Shown: in pieces, positions 37,900 through 59,458 of the stretch
Layout of the letters: every line of letters starts with the position of its first letter
How positions within the stretch are numbered: position 1 is the first letter of the stretch
Assembly (NCBI GenBank): GCA_049322615.1
Contig: JBMORX010000009.1
Coordinates: 130,321 to 194,320, forward strand
Source: Patescibacteria group bacterium
Lineage (GTDB): Bacteria; Patescibacteriota; Microgenomatia; CAYGWK01
DNA length: 64,000 bases
Direction: 5' to 3'
The notes under the pieces: generated by a model
Told to the model about the DNA's origin: nothing
Database searches by the model: none
The model's input: only the letters and a program-made list of their open reading frames with translations
Translations under genes and position numbers: made by a program

Positions 37900-38967
37900 T
37901 TACTTTATTTCAATCGTCCCCTCCGGCTTTCTCAAGCGGGCAATGCTTTCAACAATTCCCAAACTTATCATTGTTGCCAAAATTGAGGACCCGCCATAAG
38001 AGACAAGAGGCAAAGTTATCCCCGTTATTGGCAGCATCCCCATGTTCATACCAATATTGACGAAAATTTGAAAAGACAAAAGAGAAAAAATACCAAATAG
38101 GATGAGGGTTCCAAAACTTGAAGATGAGCTTTGAGCAATCTTTAAGATCCGGCAAAGTATTAAAAAATAGCAAAAAACAAGGATAACTGCCCCTAAAAAA
38201 CCAAGTTCTTCTGATAAAGAGGCAAAGATAAAATCCGTGTGGCGCTCTGGTAAAAAGGCAAGATGACTTTGGGTTCCTCTTCCCAATCCCCGACCAAAAA
38301 GCTCCCCCGAGCCAACAGTAATAACCGACTGGATGAGGTGGTAGCCTGAACCTAAAGGATCAAGGTAGGGATTTAAGAAACTTAGAATCCGCGCTTTTTG
38401 ATAACTTTTCAATAAAAACCAACCAATAGGAGAAAAAACACCCAAAACTAAAAGTCCTGCAACAACATAAAGACCAGAAATGTTACTTGCAAGTAAAATC
38501 CCCAAAAAAGAGGCTAAAATGACCAGAGTACTCCCCAGATCCGGTTGTTTAAAAATAAAAATTAAAGGCAAGGATAAAAGAAGAAAGGAGGTGATAAGTC
38601 TAAAGACTGATAGTTTTTCTTCTTTGGCAAAAAAATAGGCAAAAAAGCAAACCAAAAAAGGCTTAACTATCTCTGATGGCTGGATAGTAAAATTTCCAAC
38701 TTGTATCCAACGAATTGAACCGCGGGTCACCTCACCAAACAAAAAGGTTAAGATTAAAAAGACAAAAGTTGCCCCATATAAAAGCCAGGACAAATTTTCA
38801 AAAACCCTAAAATCTATCTTGGCAAAAAGGAAAAAGAAGAAAAATCCAATTATAAGAAAAATGAGTTGTTGGACAAAGAGAGATGGCACCAAACTCCAAG
38901 TCATCGCCAGTCCCAAGATGGCAATAATTATAATTGCCAGAAGAATTGGAAAATCAAAGCCTCTCAA
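37900..38967 (-). CDS. rodA: SEDS-family peptidoglycan glycosyltransferase (RodA/FtsW/SpoVE family; rodA-like by context)
   Basis: 10-TM SEDS pattern, 355 aa, located outside the dcw block. Confidence 0.7.
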   Translation of the reverse strand: MRGFDFPILLAIIIIAILGLAMTWSLVPSLFVQQLIFLIIGFFFFFLFAKIDFRVFENLSWLLYGATFVFLILTFLFGEVTRGSIRWIQVGNFTIQPSEIVKPFLVCFFAYFFAKEEKLSVFRLITSFLLLSLPLIFIFKQPDLGSTLVILASFLGILLASNISGLYVVAGLLVLGVFSPIGWFLLKSYQKARILSFLNPYLDPLGSGYHLIQSVITVGSGELFGRGLGRGTQSHLAFLPERHTDFIFASLSEELGFLGAVILVFCYFLILCRILKIAQSSSSSFGTLILFGIFSLLSFQIFVNIGMNMGMLPITGITLPLVSYGGSSILATMISLGIVESIARLRKPEGTIEIK

Positions 38968-47299: not shown

Positions 47300-48394
47300 T
47301 TACTTCTTTTTTACCCTCTGTTTTGAGATATTAAGTAAAATTCCTATTCCTGAAAGAGCAACAACCAAAGATGAACCGCCGTAAGAAATAAAAGGTAAAG
47401 GGACGCCGGTTAAAGGGACTAAAGCCACCTGACTAGCTAGATTAACCAACGTCTGGACTCCAATCCAAGAAGTAATGCCTACGGCTAAAAGTTGACCAAA
47501 TCGATCTGGGGCTTCTTGGGAAATTTTTAAGCCCTTAAAAACTATCACCAAAAAAACAATAAGCAGAACTATTGCCCCAATAAACCCTAACTCCTCGGCA
47601 ATTATGGCAAAGATTGAGTCAGTCATTGCCTCGGGTAAATATTCGTATTTTTGCCTCGAAGCTCCCAAACCTAAACCCCAAAGTCCTCCTGCTCCCAAAG
47701 CTAAAAGAACTTGTCTGATGTGATAGCTTGCCCCTAAAGGATCACGACTAATATCTAAAAAGGTCAAAAATCGCTCTTTTCGATAATTTGAACTAAAAAT
47801 AAGAGAAAGCCCGGTTAAAATACCCAAAACCGCCATAAGGACAAGAGAGAAAAGAGGGGCGCCTGAGACAAAATAAAGAGAAAGACCAGAGGCAACCAAG
47901 ACGACGGTCGTACCTAAATCTGGCTCAAGCATTATCAAAATCGAAAGTATTCCTAGGGAAACTAAAAATGGGAGAAATTTTGGCTTTTTGGCAAAAAGGA
48001 AGGAAAGATATAAAACAAAGGTCAGTTTAGTTAGTTCTGCTGGCTGAAAGCTAAAACCAGCAAAAGTCAACCATCTTCTTGCTCCAAGAACCTTTACTCC
48101 CAAACCAGGAATAAGGACTAAAACTAAGGCAATAAAAGTCATAAACATAAGAATTGGCGCTAATTTTTCAAGTCTCCGATAGTCAAATTTTGAAGCGGCA
48201 AATAAAGCGCCCAACCCTAAAATCGCCCAAAAAATTTGTTGGCGAATATAAAAATACTTATCCCCAAAATCCCGAAAAGCCGTCACTACCGAGGCATCAT
48301 AAACCATCAAAATCCCAAAAAGAGTTAAACCGACGACAAGAAAGACTAGTAGCCGATCAATTTTTTGAGTTTGAGACTTAAGGGCAACCATCAC
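47300..48394 (-). CDS. ftsW: SEDS-family lipid II flippase/polymerase FtsW
   Basis: 10-TM SEDS protein inside the dcw cluster, upstream of murG. Confidence 0.8.
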   Translation of the reverse strand: MMVALKSQTQKIDRLLVFLVVGLTLFGILMVYDASVVTAFRDFGDKYFYIRQQIFWAILGLGALFAASKFDYRRLEKLAPILMFMTFIALVLVLIPGLGVKVLGARRWLTFAGFSFQPAELTKLTFVLYLSFLFAKKPKFLPFLVSLGILSILIMLEPDLGTTVVLVASGLSLYFVSGAPLFSLVLMAVLGILTGLSLIFSSNYRKERFLTFLDISRDPLGASYHIRQVLLALGAGGLWGLGLGASRQKYEYLPEAMTDSIFAIIAEELGFIGAIVLLIVFLVIVFKGLKISQEAPDRFGQLLAVGITSWIGVQTLVNLASQVALVPLTGVPLPFISYGGSSLVVALSGIGILLNISKQRVKKK

Positions 48395-48395
48395 T

Positions 48396-49742
48396 CTAAA
48401 GGATTAATTCTCTCTTTACCTCCAAAAGGGCTTTCTTTGGGAAACTTTTAATCTGTCCTTCCTCATCTAAAATCTCCTCAAGGGAGTTTAGTCTGGCAAT
48501 TTCATTTTCAGGAGTAATAATTCTCCCACCACTTGCAGCCAGGATGAAGAACTCTCGCCTTTCGGAGATGTCCTCAAGACTATATCCCTCTCTTAAATAA
48601 GTTAAGTGCTCTCTTTTGTAAGAATAAATACCAGGGGGAAATTCACCTGTCACCCTCACCGAAGCCGTTGTATTATTTCTCATAATCAATTCTCCCCCAA
48701 TCATTTCTTTAACTTTTCTGGAGTCATCTTGCGGATAAGCCTTTTTTAAATACTCAAGAATATGATAAAGTAAAAGCGGTGTTTGGCCTGCCTTAAGCTC
48801 CATTTTGGTGTAAAGCGGAACAGAAGCGGTAAGCCTAGCATTGTTCTCGGAAATATAAACTTTATCGGTCTTATCTTCTACTAGAAAATCTAAACCAAAA
48901 AAACCTTTATATCCTAAATCTCTCATCTTCTCTCCGATTATTTGAGAATACTCTTCTATCTTATCCCTTATCTTTTCCTTTAACCTAGCTGGCCATTGCC
49001 TGCCACAAGTTCCCCCAGGGTTTTGGGTGAATTCTTCTAGGGCGGTAATCTGAAGCGCCGGCGGAGAGATAAAGATTTTTTTTCCTGTTACACAGGCATT
49101 ATTTAAAACCGTTCTTCCTTTAATGAAACAAGTTATTCGAACTTCTCTTTCCGGAAATTTAGCTTGCAAATGAACAAAATCGCTCTTGTTCTTAACAAAA
49201 TAAGTGGTGTTTCCAGCCCAACCATGACCAAATTGAATGACCAGTTTCTGGCCGAAGCGGAGGCTTAAATCTTGATAATGACACCTTTTTAAAATTTTTA
49301 TCTCTCCCGGCGGATGGGAGATATTTAAGGATTGACAAAGTCGATAAAAAGAAACCTTATCCTCAAATTGCTGATTAAGCTCGGGGCTGGCGCCTAAAGC
49401 CCGCCAACCTTTTCTTTGACAAATCGCCTCAATTTTCTTTGAAGGTTTAAAAAATAAAATATTTGGTTTCAGATTTCGAGCATTTTTAGCAATGTATTCT
49501 TGAACAAGTGGATGGGCCAAAATCATTCCTGTATTGCGCAAAACGGTGTTTTCTTTCCCAATTTTTGCTTCTAGAGAGAAAACTCTCACTCCTTTGGCAA
49601 TCAACAAATCAACTAGCGGGCTATTATCCAAACAAATAATATGGTAAAAAGAGAGGACTTTCTCAAGTCCCACTGCCCGGGCAGGATCGGGAGTAACATA
49701 AAAAATAGGTTCCTTGATTTTTGAGAACAAATCGTCTTTCAT
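48396..49742 (-). CDS. ATP-grasp family ligase (LysX/RimK-like C-terminal domain), at the canonical murD position
   Basis: GFFGLDFLVEDKTDKVYISENNARLT is the ATP-grasp C-terminal Mg/ATP-binding pattern. 448 aa with a ~150-aa N-terminal extension. Confidence 0.55.
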   Translation of the reverse strand: MKDDLFSKIKEPIFYVTPDPARAVGLEKVLSFYHIICLDNSPLVDLLIAKGVRVFSLEAKIGKENTVLRNTGMILAHPLVQEYIAKNARNLKPNILFFKPSKKIEAICQRKGWRALGASPELNQQFEDKVSFYRLCQSLNISHPPGEIKILKRCHYQDLSLRFGQKLVIQFGHGWAGNTTYFVKNKSDFVHLQAKFPEREVRITCFIKGRTVLNNACVTGKKIFISPPALQITALEEFTQNPGGTCGRQWPARLKEKIRDKIEEYSQIIGEKMRDLGYKGFFGLDFLVEDKTDKVYISENNARLTASVPLYTKMELKAGQTPLLLYHILEYLKKAYPQDDSRKVKEMIGGELIMRNNTTASVRVTGEFPPGIYSYKREHLTYLREGYSLEDISERREFFILAASGGRIITPENEIARLNSLEEILDEEGQIKSFPKKALLEVKRELIL

Positions 49743-50674
49743 TTTAAATATTTTTTACCGGTTAGAAGACAAATTATTTTATCACCCAGGTTATCTTGGA
49801 TTTTTTTTGCCTTCCAAATAGCCGCTAAAGTCGCCCCCCCCTCAGCTGAAGTAGAAATTCCTAATTTAGCCAGTTCTCTTAAGGCTTTCTTAATCTCCTC
49901 ATCAGAAATAACCCAACCAAATCCTTCAGATTCTTTAATAAGATTCAAAATCTGTTCTTTCCTTGGAGTCACCTTGGCGACCAAGGCGTCAGCCAGACTG
50001 GTTTTTTTAGCCTGATAATCTTTATCAAAAATACGAGCAATCGGACAAACAGCCGCTGTTTGGACAACATGAAATTGAGGAAAATAACCTAAAATTTTAT
50101 AACCTTCGCCTATTCCAGCCAGAGCGGTCCCGCTTGAGACAGGAATAAAGATGCTGTCTACTTTTCCCAAATTTTGCTGGATTTCAAAAGCCAAAGACTT
50201 ATAACCTTCGCTTCCGACTTCCTGAATCGAAGGTCTTAAATTCAAAAAACCTTTCTCTAGAGAAAAGCGGGTCGCCTCACTCACCGGCCGCCGGCTAAAA
50301 AAAATCTCAGCCTTTTGTTCTTTAAGCTTTTTCAGCTTATCTTGCTTAATTTTAGGTGAGACAAAGGTATGAAGTTTAATCTTTGCCAGCTGACAATAGG
50401 CGGCGGCTGAAATGGCAGCATTACCGGAAGATGAAATCACCAAATTCTTTCTCCCTTCCCCAAAAGCCCTAGAGATTTGATAAGCCATACCTCGGTCTTT
50501 AATCGAGCCTGTTGGATTTTGGTCTTCTCTTTTGAAAATTATTTTCCCAACCTGAATTTCGGCGGTATCTCCTTCTTTAAGGCTTAACCAAAATTTCTTT
50601 GAGAGTTTCGGATAGTAAAAATGGTATTTCCAGATACCGGGCAAACTTTTCTCCACTTGCAAGATACTTGACAT
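49739..50674 (-). CDS. PLP-dependent beta-family enzyme, threonine-synthase-like
   Basis: NPTGSIKDRG (Lys-PLP motif), ISSSGNAA and the C-terminal EGGATLAA pattern; 311 aa. Confidence 0.65.
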   Translation of the reverse strand: MSSILQVEKSLPGIWKYHFYYPKLSKKFWLSLKEGDTAEIQVGKIIFKREDQNPTGSIKDRGMAYQISRAFGEGRKNLVISSSGNAAISAAAYCQLAKIKLHTFVSPKIKQDKLKKLKEQKAEIFFSRRPVSEATRFSLEKGFLNLRPSIQEVGSEGYKSLAFEIQQNLGKVDSIFIPVSSGTALAGIGEGYKILGYFPQFHVVQTAAVCPIARIFDKDYQAKKTSLADALVAKVTPRKEQILNLIKESEGFGWVISDEEIKKALRELAKLGISTSAEGGATLAAIWKAKKIQDNLGDKIICLLTGKKYLK

Positions 50675-50682
50675 TGATGTTT

Positions 50683-50735
50683 TAATTATATGCAGTGCAT
50701 ATAAAGTGCATATAACTTGCTATGCACATTATACC
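50683..50735. promoter_or_regulatory. divergent promoter with a 15-bp perfect palindrome ATATGCAGTGCATAT and inverted repeat GTGCATA-N8-TATGCAC
   Basis: Read directly. Lies between the PLP-enzyme start (50674, -) and the LysW-like start (50751, +). Confidence 0.5.
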
Positions 50736-50750
50736 AAAGGAGGATGAGCA

Positions 50751-50909
50751 ATGCCCAAAACTGTTCAATGCCCAGATTGCCAAGGGCAAGTTTTAGTCCC
50801 TCAAGATTGCGAGGTAGGAGAGATTTTAGAATGTCCTGGCTGTGGGGCGGAGATGGAAGTAATCAGTCTTGAGCCTCTGGAAGTTTCTCTAATTGAAGAG
50901 GAAAAATAA
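50751..50909 (+). CDS. lysW: LysW/ArgW-type amino-group carrier protein-like zinc-ribbon (52 aa; not in the ORF track)
   Basis: MPKTVQCPDCQGQVLVPQDCEVGEILECPGCGAEMEVISLEPLEVSLIEEEK. It has CPxC...CPGCGAE(M/L)EV(I/V)xL(E/D)PL plus an acidic tail, very close to the LysW consensus. AAAGGAGGA RBS sits 7 nt upstream. It ends ...EEEK, not the canonical C-terminal Glu. Confidence 0.55.
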   Translation: MPKTVQCPDCQGQVLVPQDCEVGEILECPGCGAEMEVISLEPLEVSLIEEEK

Positions 50910-50910
50910 C

Positions 50911-51621
50911 TCAAGTCCAAATCCGCAATCGCCGGATGCCATCGCCTTTCTCTGGCTTGAAAAACTTCTGACCATAATTCTCTCCTTTTTTTGTCCTCTC
51001 CAGCCACTTTTGCGCCTCAAGTCCATAATTTCCATCCTTAATCAAAATTCTGGCTTTATGGACTCCATCCGGTACTGTTCCAGGTGAAGAATGAGCGTAA
51101 ACAATTTCTTTGATCTGACCCTTGCTTCCTCTTTTAATCTCCACAATGACTGCTAGATGCTTCCCCTCCCCAAGCCTGATTAAATCACCAACAGCCAAAT
51201 CCCGCAATTTCTTGATAGGCAAAGAAACTTCATCATTGGTTAACATCATCACGTTCGCCCTGAGCAAAAACTTACCTTTAACCCCGGGAATGTCATCTTC
51301 CAGTCCATTACCACCTTTTTCCTTATCAAGGGTATTAAGAAGTTTAAAAGCTAGTCCTGAACAGTCCAAACCAATTCGATTTTTTTTCATAAAAACCCTG
51401 ATTTGTTGGCTGGTCAACTTCGCCAAATTAATCTTCTTCTTCGCTCCCACCTCCAAAGTTGCCCTAACTAATTCTTGGGGACTACCTTTACCTCCATAAG
51501 GACCCCAAATCTTCTTTTTTATCTTGTCCATCCAGTAAGGACATTTCACTTGCTTTTTGAATATGGGCAGATGGGTATACTGAAAAAGGAGTTTATCTAT
51601 CGCTTTTGAGGAAGTAATCAT
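50911..51621 (-). CDS. NlpC/P60 (C40) family peptidase-like protein
   Basis: GLDCSGLAFKLL is the catalytic-Cys motif. Start set at the ATG overlapping the mraY stop (ATGA). Confidence 0.55.
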   Translation of the reverse strand: MITSSKAIDKLLFQYTHLPIFKKQVKCPYWMDKIKKKIWGPYGGKGSPQELVRATLEVGAKKKINLAKLTSQQIRVFMKKNRIGLDCSGLAFKLLNTLDKEKGGNGLEDDIPGVKGKFLLRANVMMLTNDEVSLPIKKLRDLAVGDLIRLGEGKHLAVIVEIKRGSKGQIKEIVYAHSSPGTVPDGVHKARILIKDGNYGLEAQKWLERTKKGENYGQKFFKPEKGDGIRRLRIWT

Positions 51622-52649
51622 ATTACTGCCAGCCAGAGCCCAAAAATAGCCAACATTATCCCTGCCAACCAAGCTCGCATGACAATTTTTGGCTCTTCCC
51701 AACCGCGCTCCTGAAGCCAAAGATGAAAAGGAGCCACCTTAAATATCTTTCTGCCCAATAAACGTTTAGCGATAATTTGCAAAAGGCTTGAGGAAATCTC
51801 CACCACAAAAAGACCTCCAATGACAACCAAAGCCATAATTTTTCCAATTAAAAGCCCAACGACCGCAAGCGTTGCTCCAAAAGAAAGTGCCCCCACATCG
51901 CCCAAAAAAATTCTCGCCGGATAGACATTAAAGTATAAAAAGGCGATAAGAGCACCGATCCAGAAGGAAAGGAAAATCGAAAGGACCGTATCTAAGTTAG
52001 TATGGGAAAGAATCCAAAAGGCGAAAAGAGAAATAAGAAGAAGACCTGAAGCAAGTCCGTCTAAACCATCGGTAATATTTAGGGCGTTGGTAAAAGCCAC
52101 AATAATAAAAGCAGCCAGGGGGACATAAAAAATGCCAAGGTCAAAAACTCCAAAAAAGGGAACATTGACAAAATCAATCTTTAAATTTTGAAAAAGCAAA
52201 GCGGCAATGATGAAAGCCAAAATCCACTGAATAAGAAATTTCCAGCGCAGTCGCAAGCCAAAAATTCCCTTACTCGCCAAACCAAAAAATTTCATTAAAT
52301 CATCATAGAGACCTAAAAGACCAAAGGAGATAAAGGTAAAAAAGAGGATATTCAATTCGTCTTTGATCGGATAAAAAGCGGTGATGTAAACCCCAAGATA
52401 TGAAATTAAAGGAAAAAGAAGAACATAAAGGAGGGAGACAACAGCGATGATTAAAAACCCGCCGCCAACCGGAGTCCCGGCTTTTTCCCGATGAAATTTG
52501 TCAAAAATGGGCGTCCTTAAACCGAGAAAATCTCGAGTTCTCTGATCTCTTCGCTGAAACTTAATCCTATATAAAAAATTAATAAAGGGGACAATTAAGA
52601 TACTGGTGATGATGAAAGTAAAAATTAAAAGTCCTAAGAAAAGTGCCAT
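51618..52649 (-). CDS. mraY: phospho-MurNAc-pentapeptide translocase MraY
   Basis: 10-TM protein with conserved Asp-rich loops. Start moved to MALFLGLL to remove the overlap with murF. Confidence 0.9.
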   Translation of the reverse strand: MALFLGLLIFTFIITSILIVPFINFLYRIKFQRRDQRTRDFLGLRTPIFDKFHREKAGTPVGGGFLIIAVVSLLYVLLFPLISYLGVYITAFYPIKDELNILFFTFISFGLLGLYDDLMKFFGLASKGIFGLRLRWKFLIQWILAFIIAALLFQNLKIDFVNVPFFGVFDLGIFYVPLAAFIIVAFTNALNITDGLDGLASGLLLISLFAFWILSHTNLDTVLSIFLSFWIGALIAFLYFNVYPARIFLGDVGALSFGATLAVVGLLIGKIMALVVIGGLFVVEISSSLLQIIAKRLLGRKIFKVAPFHLWLQERGWEEPKIVMRAWLAGIMLAIFGLWLAVI

Positions 52650-52656
52650 GTTTTGA

Positions 52657-53898
52657 TTATATCTCCTTTCCCAATTTCGGACAACTAAGGCAGGATTGAT
52701 AAAAATGACAAGAGGAGAGTTTGCAATTGACGGGTTTTCCCTCAAGGATTAAAATTATCCGCTCAAGGTGGCGAAGAAGCGAGCCTTTAAGGTATATAAG
52801 ATCTCCTTTCTTAAGAATTTTTTTCAAAAGATCTCCTGCCTCACAAACGTCTTTAACCCAGACGACATTTTTTTTCTTCATTCCGCTTTTTTCTGCCTCC
52901 TGGGCAACCAGTCTTTGTAATGGACCAACCAAGACTAAAAAATCAATTTTAAACTTTGCTAAAATTCTCCCTATTTTTCGATGCTCTTCTTCTGCATATT
53001 CCCCCAACTCTCCCATTTCCCCCAAGACTGCCACCCTTTTCCCTTTCGTAGGCAAAAGGGATAAGGTCTCAAGCCCAGAAATAGTTGAAACCGGATTTGC
53101 CCGAAGATGATCATTTAAAAAAATTGTTCCCAATGGTCCTTTCTCAAGGCTCAACCGACCAGAAAGAGGTTCAAGTTTGGAAAGCCCGGAAATTATCTCT
53201 TTTAGGCTCAACCCCTTAATCAAGCCGATTGCTGTTGCCGCTAAGGCGGCGTGGGTAAAATGTTTACCAATAAGAGGAATTTTAACCCTAACAGTTTGCT
53301 GACCTGCCTTGTGAAGCAAAAACGAGGTACCAGAAAAATCAACTTTTATCTTATCCGCCCAAAAATCACAATTTTTGCTCTTCCCATACCAGAGAATTTC
53401 TGCTTTTGTTTTCTTTGCCATTTTTCTGACATTTTCATCATCATAATTTAGGATCGCCCAACCATCCTTTGGTAAGGCAGCTAAAAGTTTCCCCTTTCCC
53501 TCGATAATTCCCTCAAGCGAACCCAAAAGTTCTGGCTCTGAATGAACGGGCGTAATCCCTGTCACCACCCCGATTGAAGGTTTAACTAACCTTAGATAAG
53601 AATCCATTTCGCCCTTATGGTCAACCCCCATCTCCAAAACCAAAGCTTTATGCCAAGGTCGAAGTTTGAGAATTGTGATTGGGAGATTATAAACAGTGTC
53701 TAAATTAAGATCTGTTTGAAGAACGGGATATCTTCCCGATAAAACTTGAGCAATCGCTCGGGTGGTATTCGTCTTACCGTAGCTGCCAGTAATACCAATA
53801 ATCGTGACTTGAGGATAAAGTTTAAGCCAAGTTTTGGCTAAAAGTCTTCTCAAGTTATGAAACGGCTGTTTCCATCCTCGATTTACCATCCTTTCCAT
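52657..53898 (-). CDS. murF: UDP-MurNAc-tripeptide:D-Ala-D-Ala ligase MurF (lacks N-terminal domain; Cys-rich C-terminal tail)
   Basis: ITGSYGKTNT (P-loop), LEMGVDHKGEM, VVTGITPVHSE and LNDHLRANPVS (the DDSYNANP-type MurF hallmark). Confidence 0.8.
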   Translation of the reverse strand: MERMVNRGWKQPFHNLRRLLAKTWLKLYPQVTIIGITGSYGKTNTTRAIAQVLSGRYPVLQTDLNLDTVYNLPITILKLRPWHKALVLEMGVDHKGEMDSYLRLVKPSIGVVTGITPVHSEPELLGSLEGIIEGKGKLLAALPKDGWAILNYDDENVRKMAKKTKAEILWYGKSKNCDFWADKIKVDFSGTSFLLHKAGQQTVRVKIPLIGKHFTHAALAATAIGLIKGLSLKEIISGLSKLEPLSGRLSLEKGPLGTIFLNDHLRANPVSTISGLETLSLLPTKGKRVAVLGEMGELGEYAEEEHRKIGRILAKFKIDFLVLVGPLQRLVAQEAEKSGMKKKNVVWVKDVCEAGDLLKKILKKGDLIYLKGSLLRHLERIILILEGKPVNCKLSSCHFYQSCLSCPKLGKEI

Positions 53899-58669: not shown

Positions 58670-59458
58670 TCATATTTTTACTCGAACACCATAGTTATTC
58701 AATAAGGCTCTAATGTCTCCTTGATAAAATTTTTCTGTAAATTCTCTATCGCGCAAGAGGTACTCATTCGCTTGTTTTTCAATTAGATATTTCAATTCTT
58801 CAAGATTGCTTGACCAGGAAAACCCATTAAAAAATTCTACTCCAGTAAATTCGGTTTTATAAAGAGCGTTTTTCTCATAACAAGTGCCTAAATAGGCAAA
58901 TTTTCGTCCGTTTTTCTGGGCCCATGTCACTGCCTCTAATATCATTCTTGCCCCTAGACTTTTTTCCAAGAAATCCAGATTATAGAAAGCATGAGCATAT
59001 TGGAGTAGGTCATCACTTAAGAAACAAACTGCGTATCCGACTTCATTGCCGCCTTGGGCTTCTTTCCAGACAAAAATATAATTATACACTCCTTTTTCAA
59101 AAATACTTTTTATTCCCGCGGCCCTTATCTGACCTTTTCCAAATCGCTTGTCCATGTATTCCTTGCAAAATTTTTGAACCTCTGGGGTGTAATCAAATTC
59201 ATCAAGCGGCAAAAATTCATACTCAAAATTAGCCGTCTTGTTTAAGATTCTTCTATTCTCGCTTGAGAGGGAAAATTTGGGCAGACTAACTCGCAGGCTT
59301 CTGGAGAGATAATAAACACCGGGTAAGTTCCTCATCGGTAAAAAGCCTGAATCATAAATTTTCTCGACTTTATCCCCAACTTCTGCAAGCAACCAAACTT
59401 GATAAGGGAAAAAATATTTATCGTAATCAGCCTTAAATTCACTAAAAAACAATTTCAT
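58670..59458 (-). CDS. GNAT-fold aminoacyl-transferase-like protein (FemAB/Bpt-like), tentative
   Basis: 262 aa with no motif I can name. The call rests on its position between murE-like and murC-like. Confidence 0.3.
   Translation of the reverse strand: MKLFFSEFKADYDKYFFPYQVWLLAEVGDKVEKIYDSGFLPMRNLPGVYYLSRSLRVSLPKFSLSSENRRILNKTANFEYEFLPLDEFDYTPEVQKFCKEYMDKRFGKGQIRAAGIKSIFEKGVYNYIFVWKEAQGGNEVGYAVCFLSDDLLQYAHAFYNLDFLEKSLGARMILEAVTWAQKNGRKFAYLGTCYEKNALYKTEFTGVEFFNGFSWSSNLEELKYLIEKQANEYLLRDREFTEKFYQGDIRALLNNYGVRVKI

Follow-up and report, generated by a model that had tools for sequence, protein, structure and literature searches.

A four-gene block between mraY and ftsW

We analyzed a 64-kb stretch of DNA from a Patescibacteria group bacterium (assembly GCA_049322615.1, contig JBMORX010000009.1, positions 130,321 to 194,320; hereafter the window), which contains a block of four genes encoding a small zinc-ribbon carrier-like protein, an ATP-grasp ligase, a pyridoxal phosphate (PLP) enzyme and an NlpC/P60-fold cysteine peptidase. 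All four open reading frames (ORFs) had been listed in an earlier note made from the DNA letters alone, and all are present (Table 1). The block lies in a division and cell wall (dcw) cluster, which reads on the minus strand mraZ, ftsI, murE, a Fem/ATE_C-like gene, murC, murB, murA, ddl, murF and mraY, then the four genes, then ftsW, murG, ftsQ, ftsA and ftsZ. The interval between mraY and ftsW is the usual position of murD. Profile searches of the window proteins found no MurD-like gene in the 64 kb, and tblastn of the window with the MurD of related loci (see below) gave weak matches to murF only, which confirms that the block sits in the murD slot of a window devoid of MurD. The Mur ligases present are MurC, MurE and MurF, and Pfam annotation across the whole window detected no MurI, Alr or MurD. 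The PLP and ATP-grasp genes overlap by ATGA, and the start of ftsW is only 1 nt away from the ATP-grasp stop. This translational coupling of the block to mraY and ftsW suggests a housekeeping function in the cell wall.

Table 1. Genes and features of the block and of the flanking dcw cluster (window positions)
Feature	Coordinates	Strand	Remarks
murE, 399 aa	59455-60654	-	dcw cluster; real MurE of the window
murF, 413 aa	52657-53898		adjoins mraY; TIGR01143, 270 bits
mraY	51618-52745	-	PF00953; flanks the block upstream, with translational coupling to the peptidase gene
NlpC/P60-fold cysteine peptidase, 236 aa, cytoplasmic	50911-51621	-	ATG overlaps mraY stop (ATGA)
LysW-fold zinc-ribbon carrier-like protein, 52 aa	50751-50909	+	PF21344, PDB LysW matches, ribosome-binding site
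Divergent intergenic region	50675-50750	both	ribosome-binding site of the carrier gene; extended -10 box toward the PLP gene
Fold-type II PLP enzyme, 311 aa, threonine-synthase-like	49739-50674	-	PF00291 PALP, E = 3e-51
ATP-grasp ligase, 448 aa	48396-49742	-	PF02655, NF005096; pre-ATP-grasp N-domain and C-terminal beta domain
ftsW	47300-48394	-	PF01098, E = 3e-101; downstream flank

Conservation of the module in CPR and GC-rich genomes

Related loci comprised 29 genome loci from the candidate phyla radiation (CPR), Roizmanbacteria among them, and 37 GC-rich metagenome loci from a scan seeded with GC-rich ATP-grasps (GC 0.48-0.78). Homologue searches with the ATP-grasp, P60 and PLP (PALP) proteins returned CPR orthologues only, without informative names or fusions; the link beyond CPR came from phmmer with the 52-aa carrier and from the gene contexts of its matches. 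The order P60-like gene, carrier (always antisense), PLP enzyme and ATP-grasp is kept in the 29 CPR genome loci, and recurrence in 29 plus 37 related loci excludes a chance association. The functional tie of the carrier to the three enzymes, which the earlier note had proposed, is thus borne out by a neighbourhood conserved in related CPR genomes and beyond them.

Two arrangements prevail in CPR. In type A, mraY and ftsW flank a block that has no murD; the window, L001-L007 and L026 are of this type, as are L031 and L037/38, which are more distant. In type B (17 loci and the CPR3 locus L030), the block lies outside the dcw cluster and has a MurD-like ligase gene between P60 and carrier; TIGR01087 was the best match of this ligase (156-186 bits), which is found in 17 of 17 type-B loci, and the carrier gene often overlaps its 3' end. 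One Woesebacteria locus has the module genes scattered inside the dcw region. Among the GC-rich loci, all of those with enough flank (~25) carry P60, MurD, carrier, PALP and ATP-grasp. The module also surrounds Lys-tailed carriers on further GC-rich contigs: L034 encodes a Pfam-positive NlpC/P60 protein, a MurD scoring above the model cutoff (256 bits, cutoff 212), a same-strand carrier, PALP and ATP-grasp; L032/33 has the same type of module, cut by a contig end, and L044/45 has GH3, carrier, P60 and MurD. Its distribution covers much of the Microgenomates branch of CPR and a large set of GC-rich uncultured bacteria.

The five-gene module (carrier, ATP-grasp, PLP enzyme, NlpC/P60 and MurD) is widespread and apparently undescribed. 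We found no description of it, and no paper mentioning LysW and MurD together, in the full-text literature, which leaves most subscription journals uncovered, so that an earlier description is possible. Within the same limit, the statement of the earlier note that a LysW pathway with a PLP enzyme in a dcw cluster is not known to be described stands.

Some neighbours of the module were also recorded. The type-B module is always preceded by genes for a GT4 glycosyltransferase (MshA-like), a histidine-phosphatase-family protein and a PAP2 phosphatase (UppP/PgpB-like), at 4334-6809 in L020, 4263-6738 in L014 and 4373-6746 in L030. Recurrent neighbours in the GC-rich loci (DnaJ, PyrB/R/C, MoxR/VWA) were rejected as functional partners: they reflect clade synteny, and clustering was swamped by spurious high-GC ORFs. 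The GC-rich locus L033 (GCA_035533215.1, 77% GC), which has the module together with DnaJ, pyrimidine genes and Amidase_3, is labelled 'Candidatus Micrarchaeia archaeon' by NCBI and is probably a mis-binned bacterial contig.

A LysW-fold carrier with an invariant C-terminal lysine

The 52-aa ORF matched PF21344 (Zn_ribbon_LysW; E = 4e-14, 52.4 bits against a cutoff of 27) and, in a PDB search, the solved LysW chains 5k2m (E = 1.3e-7), 3wwl and 3vpb. Its globular zinc-ribbon domain with two CxxC pairs is followed by a tail ending ...SLIEEEK-COOH, and an AAGGAGG ribosome-binding site stands 7 nt upstream of the ATG. The earlier identification of a LysW-fold homologue with a ribosome-binding site was therefore correct. 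Its orientation had been misjudged, since the gene is not part of the minus-strand operon but lies on the plus strand, antisense to all of it. The Pfam match, the ribosome-binding site and conservation in ~55 loci rule out a spurious antisense small ORF. The antisense arrangement occurs in all CPR loci and most GC-rich loci (L008-L027, L030; L057-L082), where the 3' ends of the carrier and murD genes overlap by ~25-30 nt; in ~9 GC-rich loci the carrier gene has the orientation of the operon and either precedes P60 or is flanked by murD and the PLP gene.

All carriers whose tails were read (25 of 25 from CPR and 28 of 28 from GC-rich loci) have the ...EEK tail, and the canonical ...EDWGE ending was never seen; the 28 GC-rich tails follow the pattern [FY]x[DEQ]E[EA]K. 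Lys is thus terminal in 53 of 53, counting one carrier with a Gly after it (...EEKG), and this single case makes the Lys side chain a more likely functional group than the alpha-carboxylate. When the carrier was compared by phmmer with 1.84 billion representatives, 521 matches were obtained; the best 150 of them include 36 with ...EEK, 32 with canonical ...EDWGE and further ...xK tails, the ...EDWGE proteins forming a separate set. Moreover, the window carrier falls below the NCBIfam LysW cutoffs (TIGR01206, 33.6 against 53.2 bits; NF041070, 42.5 against 75), and neither the window nor ~75 related loci contain LysX/ArgX (RimK-type), LysZ, LysY, LysJ or LysK. Judged from its sequence, the carrier is a relative of LysW by fold that stands outside the LysW/ArgW family by cutoff, C-terminal Glu and partner enzymes, and the amino-group-carrier membership assumed in the earlier note was not upheld. 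The EEEK tail and the additional N-terminal domain of the ATP-grasp protein, given there as caveats, are in fact the traits that define this group as a family of its own.

In the spacer between the carrier and PLP genes, an extended -10 box (TGgTATAAT) lies on the PLP strand beside the carrier ribosome-binding site, and a TATAAT box occupies the same position in 11 other loci. A promoter and terminator scan performed no better on this DNA than on shuffled sequence. The spacer also holds a perfect palindrome, TATATGCAgTGCATATA, at 50687-50703 and another copy of GTGCATATA; neither showed conservation in other loci.

The ATP-grasp, PLP and peptidase enzymes

The 448-aa protein belongs to the ATP-grasp superfamily, as indicated by fold and motif. 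It passes PF02655 narrowly (24.8 bits, cutoff 23.2), among the NCBIfam models it scores best on NF005096, 'biotin carboxylase' (146 bits, well under the cutoff), and E299-x-N301-x-R303, corresponding to the Mg/ATP-binding E-x-N(-x-R) motif, is invariant in the family. The AlphaFold2 model (pLDDT 92) matched many ATP-grasp enzymes in Foldseek with probability 1.0, the best being PurK, biotin carboxylase, PurT and PurD (TM 0.55-0.62, 10-16% identity); a PDB sequence search with the protein gave nothing significant. Because this placement near PurK, biotin carboxylase and PurT is only general, the substrate cannot be read off the structure. The LysX/RimK likeness proposed earlier was not recovered: the protein gave no PF08443 signal, and its architecture, with an N-terminal Rossmann-like and a C-terminal beta domain, differs from the ~280-aa two-domain RimK/LysX enzymes. 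A fragment of PurK or CarB, named in the earlier note as a possible refutation, was ruled out, since the protein is full length and forms a conserved, module-specific family. This family has more than 250 homologues, and those with a named source are all from Microgenomates-type CPR (Shapiro-, Woese-, Gottesman-bacteria and CPR3) except two 'Clostridia bacterium' rows. The window protein and that of the non-CPR locus L041 share 28% identity (E = 3e-57), and the corresponding PLP enzymes share 32% (E = 7e-45).

The best NCBIfam and PDB matches of the PLP enzyme are threonine synthases, in agreement with the earlier note. However, the enzyme reaches 101-145 bits on the NCBIfam models of threonine synthase (ThrC), whose cutoffs are 266-421 (the highest score is 144.8 against 358), and 65 against 167 on TIGR00260. 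K59 and the S81-S82-S83-G84-N85 loop are invariant in the family. In Thermus thermophilus ThrC (1uim), T88, N154, S155, R160 and N188, which we take to be the ligands of the O-phosphohomoserine phosphate (numbering checked on the 1uim alignment), align to A86, P148, S149, G154 and S181; the position equivalent to R160 is G or A in 45 of 45 family members, and the family has an invariant motif of its own, L146-R147-x-S149. A bona fide threonine synthase was ruled out on these grounds, namely absent phosphate ligands and all curated cutoffs missed, and the ThrC-like genes of this type in CPR genomes are likely mis-annotated and are not evidence for threonine synthesis. The retained PLP lysine and SSSGN loop, with the phosphate ligands gone, point to the head group of an alpha-amino acid as the substrate rather than O-phosphohomoserine. 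The SSSGN loop binds a carboxylate, and fold-type II PLP enzymes need a free alpha-amine; conservation of the S-x-G-N loop suggests that a free alpha-carboxylate is needed too.

The window peptidase has a papain-like alpha+beta fold with a Cys-His-His/polar triad and is an NlpC/P60 protein by structure, its fold matching gamma-D-Glu-diamino-acid endopeptidases as the earlier note had it. It gave no match to PF00877; its CPR orthologues score 12-17 bits (cutoff 23), the GC-rich module orthologues pass at 67 bits, and hhalign joined the two groups with 88% probability. Cleavage after gamma-D-Glu is the hallmark of NlpC/P60 enzymes. For this protein, gamma-D-Glu-diamino-acid specificity is putative and rests on family resemblance and on fusions to MurD and to a D-Glu-cyclase-like domain.

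Connection to D-glutamate and a proposed route

Position 2 of the stem peptide in bacterial peptidoglycan is strictly conserved as D-Glu (PMC5885031). Four non-CPR loci connect the module with this residue. The locus L041 reads (mraY), GLUCM-like_C (PF14336), SH3b-NlpC/P60-MurD fusion, carrier, PALP, ATP-grasp and D-Glu_cyclase (PF07286), with murG and ftsW adjoining, and L046 has the same layout after murE-murF-mraY. In both, SH3b-NlpC/P60-MurD is a single 809-aa fusion. As these modules follow mraY or murE-murF-mraY, the MurD of the module and that of the dcw cluster are one and the same in at least one lineage. L053 encodes a 575-aa fusion of GLUCM-like_C (D-glutamate-cyclase-like) to NlpC/P60, followed by MurD, PALP and ATP-grasp. 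Thus PF14336 genes precede P60 in L041 and L046, PF07286 genes directly follow ATP-grasp in L041, L046 and L047, and fusion and adjacency together link the P60, MurD and D-Glu-cyclase-family domains. A mammalian enzyme with both cyclase-family domains converts D-Glu to 5-oxo-D-proline (PMC5339696).

Our reading of function draws on sequence, predicted structure and gene context. The module probably acts in the making of peptidoglycan precursors, at the D-Glu step. The best explanation overall, in which our confidence is somewhat less than even, is that the window block is a murD-less form of the five-gene module and acts at the D-Glu step by the route outlined here. The elements that shaped this route are the need of the PLP enzyme for a free alpha-amine, the invariant Lys side chain, P60 cleavage at gamma-D-Glu and the cyclase chemistry, in which cyclisation of D-Glu requires a free alpha-amine and a gamma-carboxyl. 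The ATP-grasp enzyme would activate the gamma-carboxyl of L-Glu as an acyl phosphate and ligate it to the epsilon-amino group of the terminal Lys of the carrier, leaving the alpha-amino and alpha-carboxyl groups of Glu free. The PLP enzyme would then form an aldimine with the free alpha-amine and invert C-alpha from L to D, and NlpC/P60 would release the D form only, whether free, for use by MurD, or once D-Glu has been joined by MurD onto UDP-MurNAc-L-Ala. The net reaction would be L-Glu + ATP -> D-Glu + ADP + Pi, with the inversion taking place on a carrier protein and driven one way by ATP, and the cyclase-family proteins may serve in release or in repair of a 5-oxo-D-proline by-product. 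The exact chemistry (gamma-Glu on Lys, epimerisation on the carrier and release by P60) is proposed tentatively. It is likewise possible, though doubtful, that the module represents a third, unrecognised D-Glu route with a carboxyl-group carrier that is the mirror image of LysW, perhaps with hand-over to MurD, and that murD is dispensable in the window lineage.

The earlier note had proposed a carrier-mediated route by which the stem peptide would receive a non-canonical amino or diamino acid. The stem peptide and the carrier remain in our reading, the attachment polarity is probably reversed, and the MurD linkage, the fusions and the D-Glu cyclase genes point to D-Glu as the product instead.

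Several points weigh against the proposed route. No racemase is known in the ThrC branch of fold-type II, and the known racemases of that fold type (Ser/Asp) are nearer to dehydratases. The nearest ATP-grasp folds activate bicarbonate, formate or glycine, not the Glu gamma-carboxyl, and NlpC/P60 enzymes cut gamma-D-Glu joined to an alpha-amine, not to a Lys epsilon-amine. D-Glu cyclase genes occur at only 4 of ~45 non-CPR loci. In addition, two loci have an isolated pair of carrier (...FEEPEK) and NlpC/P60 (L042, 8874-9954; L043, 8309-9389), with no PLP enzyme, ATP-grasp or MurD within 18 kb and with FtsX, M23 peptidase and Amidase_3 nearby. The model explains neither the missing murD in the module of the window lineage nor the need for a carrier, a plain racemase being chemically enough. 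Glu as the substrate, its attachment to the epsilon-amine of Lys, its epimerisation and its release are all predicted.

Alternative explanations

The linkage to MurD and the fusions would also fit a module that changes the residue at stem position 2 or puts another in its place, either by amidating or decorating the alpha-carboxyl of D-Glu (in the amidation variant a MurT/GatD-like role with ammonia from a PLP lyase) or by providing MurD with a D-Glu analogue, for instance 3-hydroxyglutamate, to install. The ATP-grasp could activate a precursor carboxylate, and fold-type II includes ammonia-lyases and beta-replacement enzymes. We nevertheless consider this explanation unlikely: the invariant carrier Lys and a gamma-D-Glu-type peptidase are left without a role, the products of the D-Glu cyclase genes use unmodified D-Glu, and the module contains nothing hydroxylase- or glutaminase-like. 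Salvage of wall peptides also appears improbable. Here a cytoplasmic YkfC-like P60 would cleave imported L-Ala-gamma-D-Glu-Lys/DAP peptides to recover D-Glu, and the Lys-tailed zinc ribbon would be a pseudo-substrate regulator or acceptor that keeps P60 off UDP-MurNAc-peptides. CPR bacteria are scavengers, carrier and P60 are the tightest pair and occur by themselves in L042 and L043, the L044 carrier gene follows a GH3 (NagZ-like) gene, the SH3b domain in L041 is as in YkfC-type enzymes, the carrier tail ...E-K resembles gamma-D-Glu-Lys, and a cytoplasmic NlpC/P60 acts in chlamydial recycling (PMC9928106). Yet salvage leaves unexplained both the near-universal, mutually coupled PLP enzyme and ATP-grasp and the biosynthetic murD-slot position.

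A true LysW-type carrier, holding the alpha-amine of its substrate on a carrier carboxylate and supplying the stem peptide with a non-canonical amino or diamino acid, would agree with the LysW-fold homology, with a MurE that lacks DNPR and with the Fem-like gene in the cluster. The terminal Lys might then be a cap that P60 removes, as Mec matures MetO, and carriers encoded in a 'loaded-like' form are known. With its alpha-amine blocked, however, the substrate could not form an aldimine with a fold-type II PLP enzyme; furthermore, no LysX/Z/Y/J/K homologue occurs at any locus examined, the NCBIfam LysW cutoffs are missed, and the linkage is to MurD and D-Glu cyclase rather than to MurE. We therefore give this explanation little credence. 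Least of all do we favor replacement of MurD by the ATP-grasp in the window lineage, whose genomes would then truly lack murD. The dcw clusters of the window, L001-L007, L026, L031 and L037 indeed have no murD, and the window MurC scores 249 bits on the Mpl model. Orthologous ATP-grasps, however, coexist with MurD in all other lineages, and CPR dcw clusters are often fragmented (L031 is also without local murF, murB and ddl), so that murD may simply lie elsewhere.

Comparison with known systems

In outcome, the proposed route would be analogous to MurD2/MurL, an ATP-dependent one-way conversion of L- to D-Glu at the murD locus (PMC8788868). In architecture, it would resemble LysW, with the carrier polarity reversed, and MetO/MetM/Mec, in which a ThrC-like enzyme works with a small carrier and a hydrolase (cited in bioRxiv 10.1101/2024.10.14.618325).

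The LysW/ArgW systems (Thermus, Sulfolobus, Thermococcus; AmCP in Streptomyces) share with the module a ~50-aa zinc-ribbon domain with an acidic flexible tail and, in logic, loading by an ATP-grasp enzyme, modification and release by a hydrolase. Their tail ends in Glu (...EDWGE), whose gamma-carboxyl carries the substrate, whereas the module tail ends in an invariant Lys (...EEK); the alpha-amine must be free for the PLP enzyme of the module, which makes a reversed attachment polarity probable. Their ligase is RimK/LysX and that of the module is like carbamoyl-phosphate synthetase, biotin carboxylase and PurK; their kinase, reductase and aminotransferase are absent from the module, which has a fold-type II PLP enzyme as single modifier; and their hydrolase is an M20 peptidase, in contrast to NlpC/P60 in a context of murD and the dcw cluster. 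CysO-CysM-Mec and MetO-MetM-Mec likewise use a carrier C-terminus in a fold-type II PLP reaction together with a dedicated hydrolase, and MetM is threonine-synthase-like. Those pathways have ubiquitin-like carriers on which MoeZ makes a GG-thiocarboxylate, and the products are Cys and homocysteine; the module has a zinc-ribbon carrier, an ATP-grasp activator, a PLP enzyme without phosphate-binding residues and no link to sulfur.

MurD2/MurL, found in Xanthomonas and Micromonospora, shares with the proposed route the bypass of a free glutamate racemase but, unlike the module, has no carrier protein, PLP enzyme, ATP-grasp or peptidase. In YkfC/YkfB murein-peptide recycling and with the chlamydial NlpC/P60, a cytoplasmic NlpC/P60 at the gamma-D-Glu bond likewise accompanies an enzyme for Glu stereochemistry, and some module versions have SH3b on NlpC/P60 as YkfC does; these systems, however, are catabolic, use an enolase-superfamily dipeptide epimerase and have no carrier or ATP-grasp. 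Finally, glutathionylspermidine synthetase/amidase and TTL/vasohibin also pair an ATP-grasp with a papain-like cysteine amidase to make and break one amide bond. Tubulin tyrosination acts on an acidic ...EE(Y) protein tail. Neither system has a PLP step or a cell-wall link, and the likeness of both to the module is in logic only.

The supply of D-Glu is an antibiotic target, and its known routes are MurI, D-amino-acid transaminase, bifunctional DapF (Chlamydia) and MurD2/MurL. If our reading is true, a carrier-protein route would add a new D-Glu supply to these, carrier-assisted amino-acid chemistry would extend to stereo-inversion with reversed attachment polarity, and functions would be provided for four families now annotated as 'hypothetical', 'threonine synthase', 'biotin carboxylase' and 'LysW'. 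Epimerisation on the carrier, if confirmed, would be categorically new biochemistry, beyond carrier-assisted conversion of amino acids.

Other features of the window

The earlier note had described the neighbouring ligase as MurE-like without the DNPR motif. The ligase adjoining mraY is in fact MurF, and the lack of DNPR applies to the real MurE, whose C-terminal domain reads ...ILTHEDTYHED... where the motif is expected; this stretch is DNPR in enzymes of the meso-diaminopimelate type and DDPN in those of the Lys type. Domain 1 of Mur ligases (PF01225), which binds the UDP moiety in canonical enzymes, was undetected in the window MurE and MurF. Only their middle and C-terminal domains were found, and their NCBIfam alignments begin near profile positions 64-71. 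The Fem/ATE_C-like gene between murE and murC (58670-59458, 262 aa) encodes an aminoacyl-tRNA-dependent transferase-like protein and is kept at this position in type-A CPR loci, which suggests a branched or bridged stem peptide.

Beyond the end of the dcw cluster, ileS and ftsZ flank an IS200/Y1-transposase-like ORF (PF01797; 42501-43181, plus strand), whose strand is opposite to that of nearly all genes around it. A second SEDS (FtsW/RodA) gene, at 37900-38967, is located directly downstream of ileS, and the same ftsZ-ileS-SEDS arrangement is also seen in the type-A locus L031.

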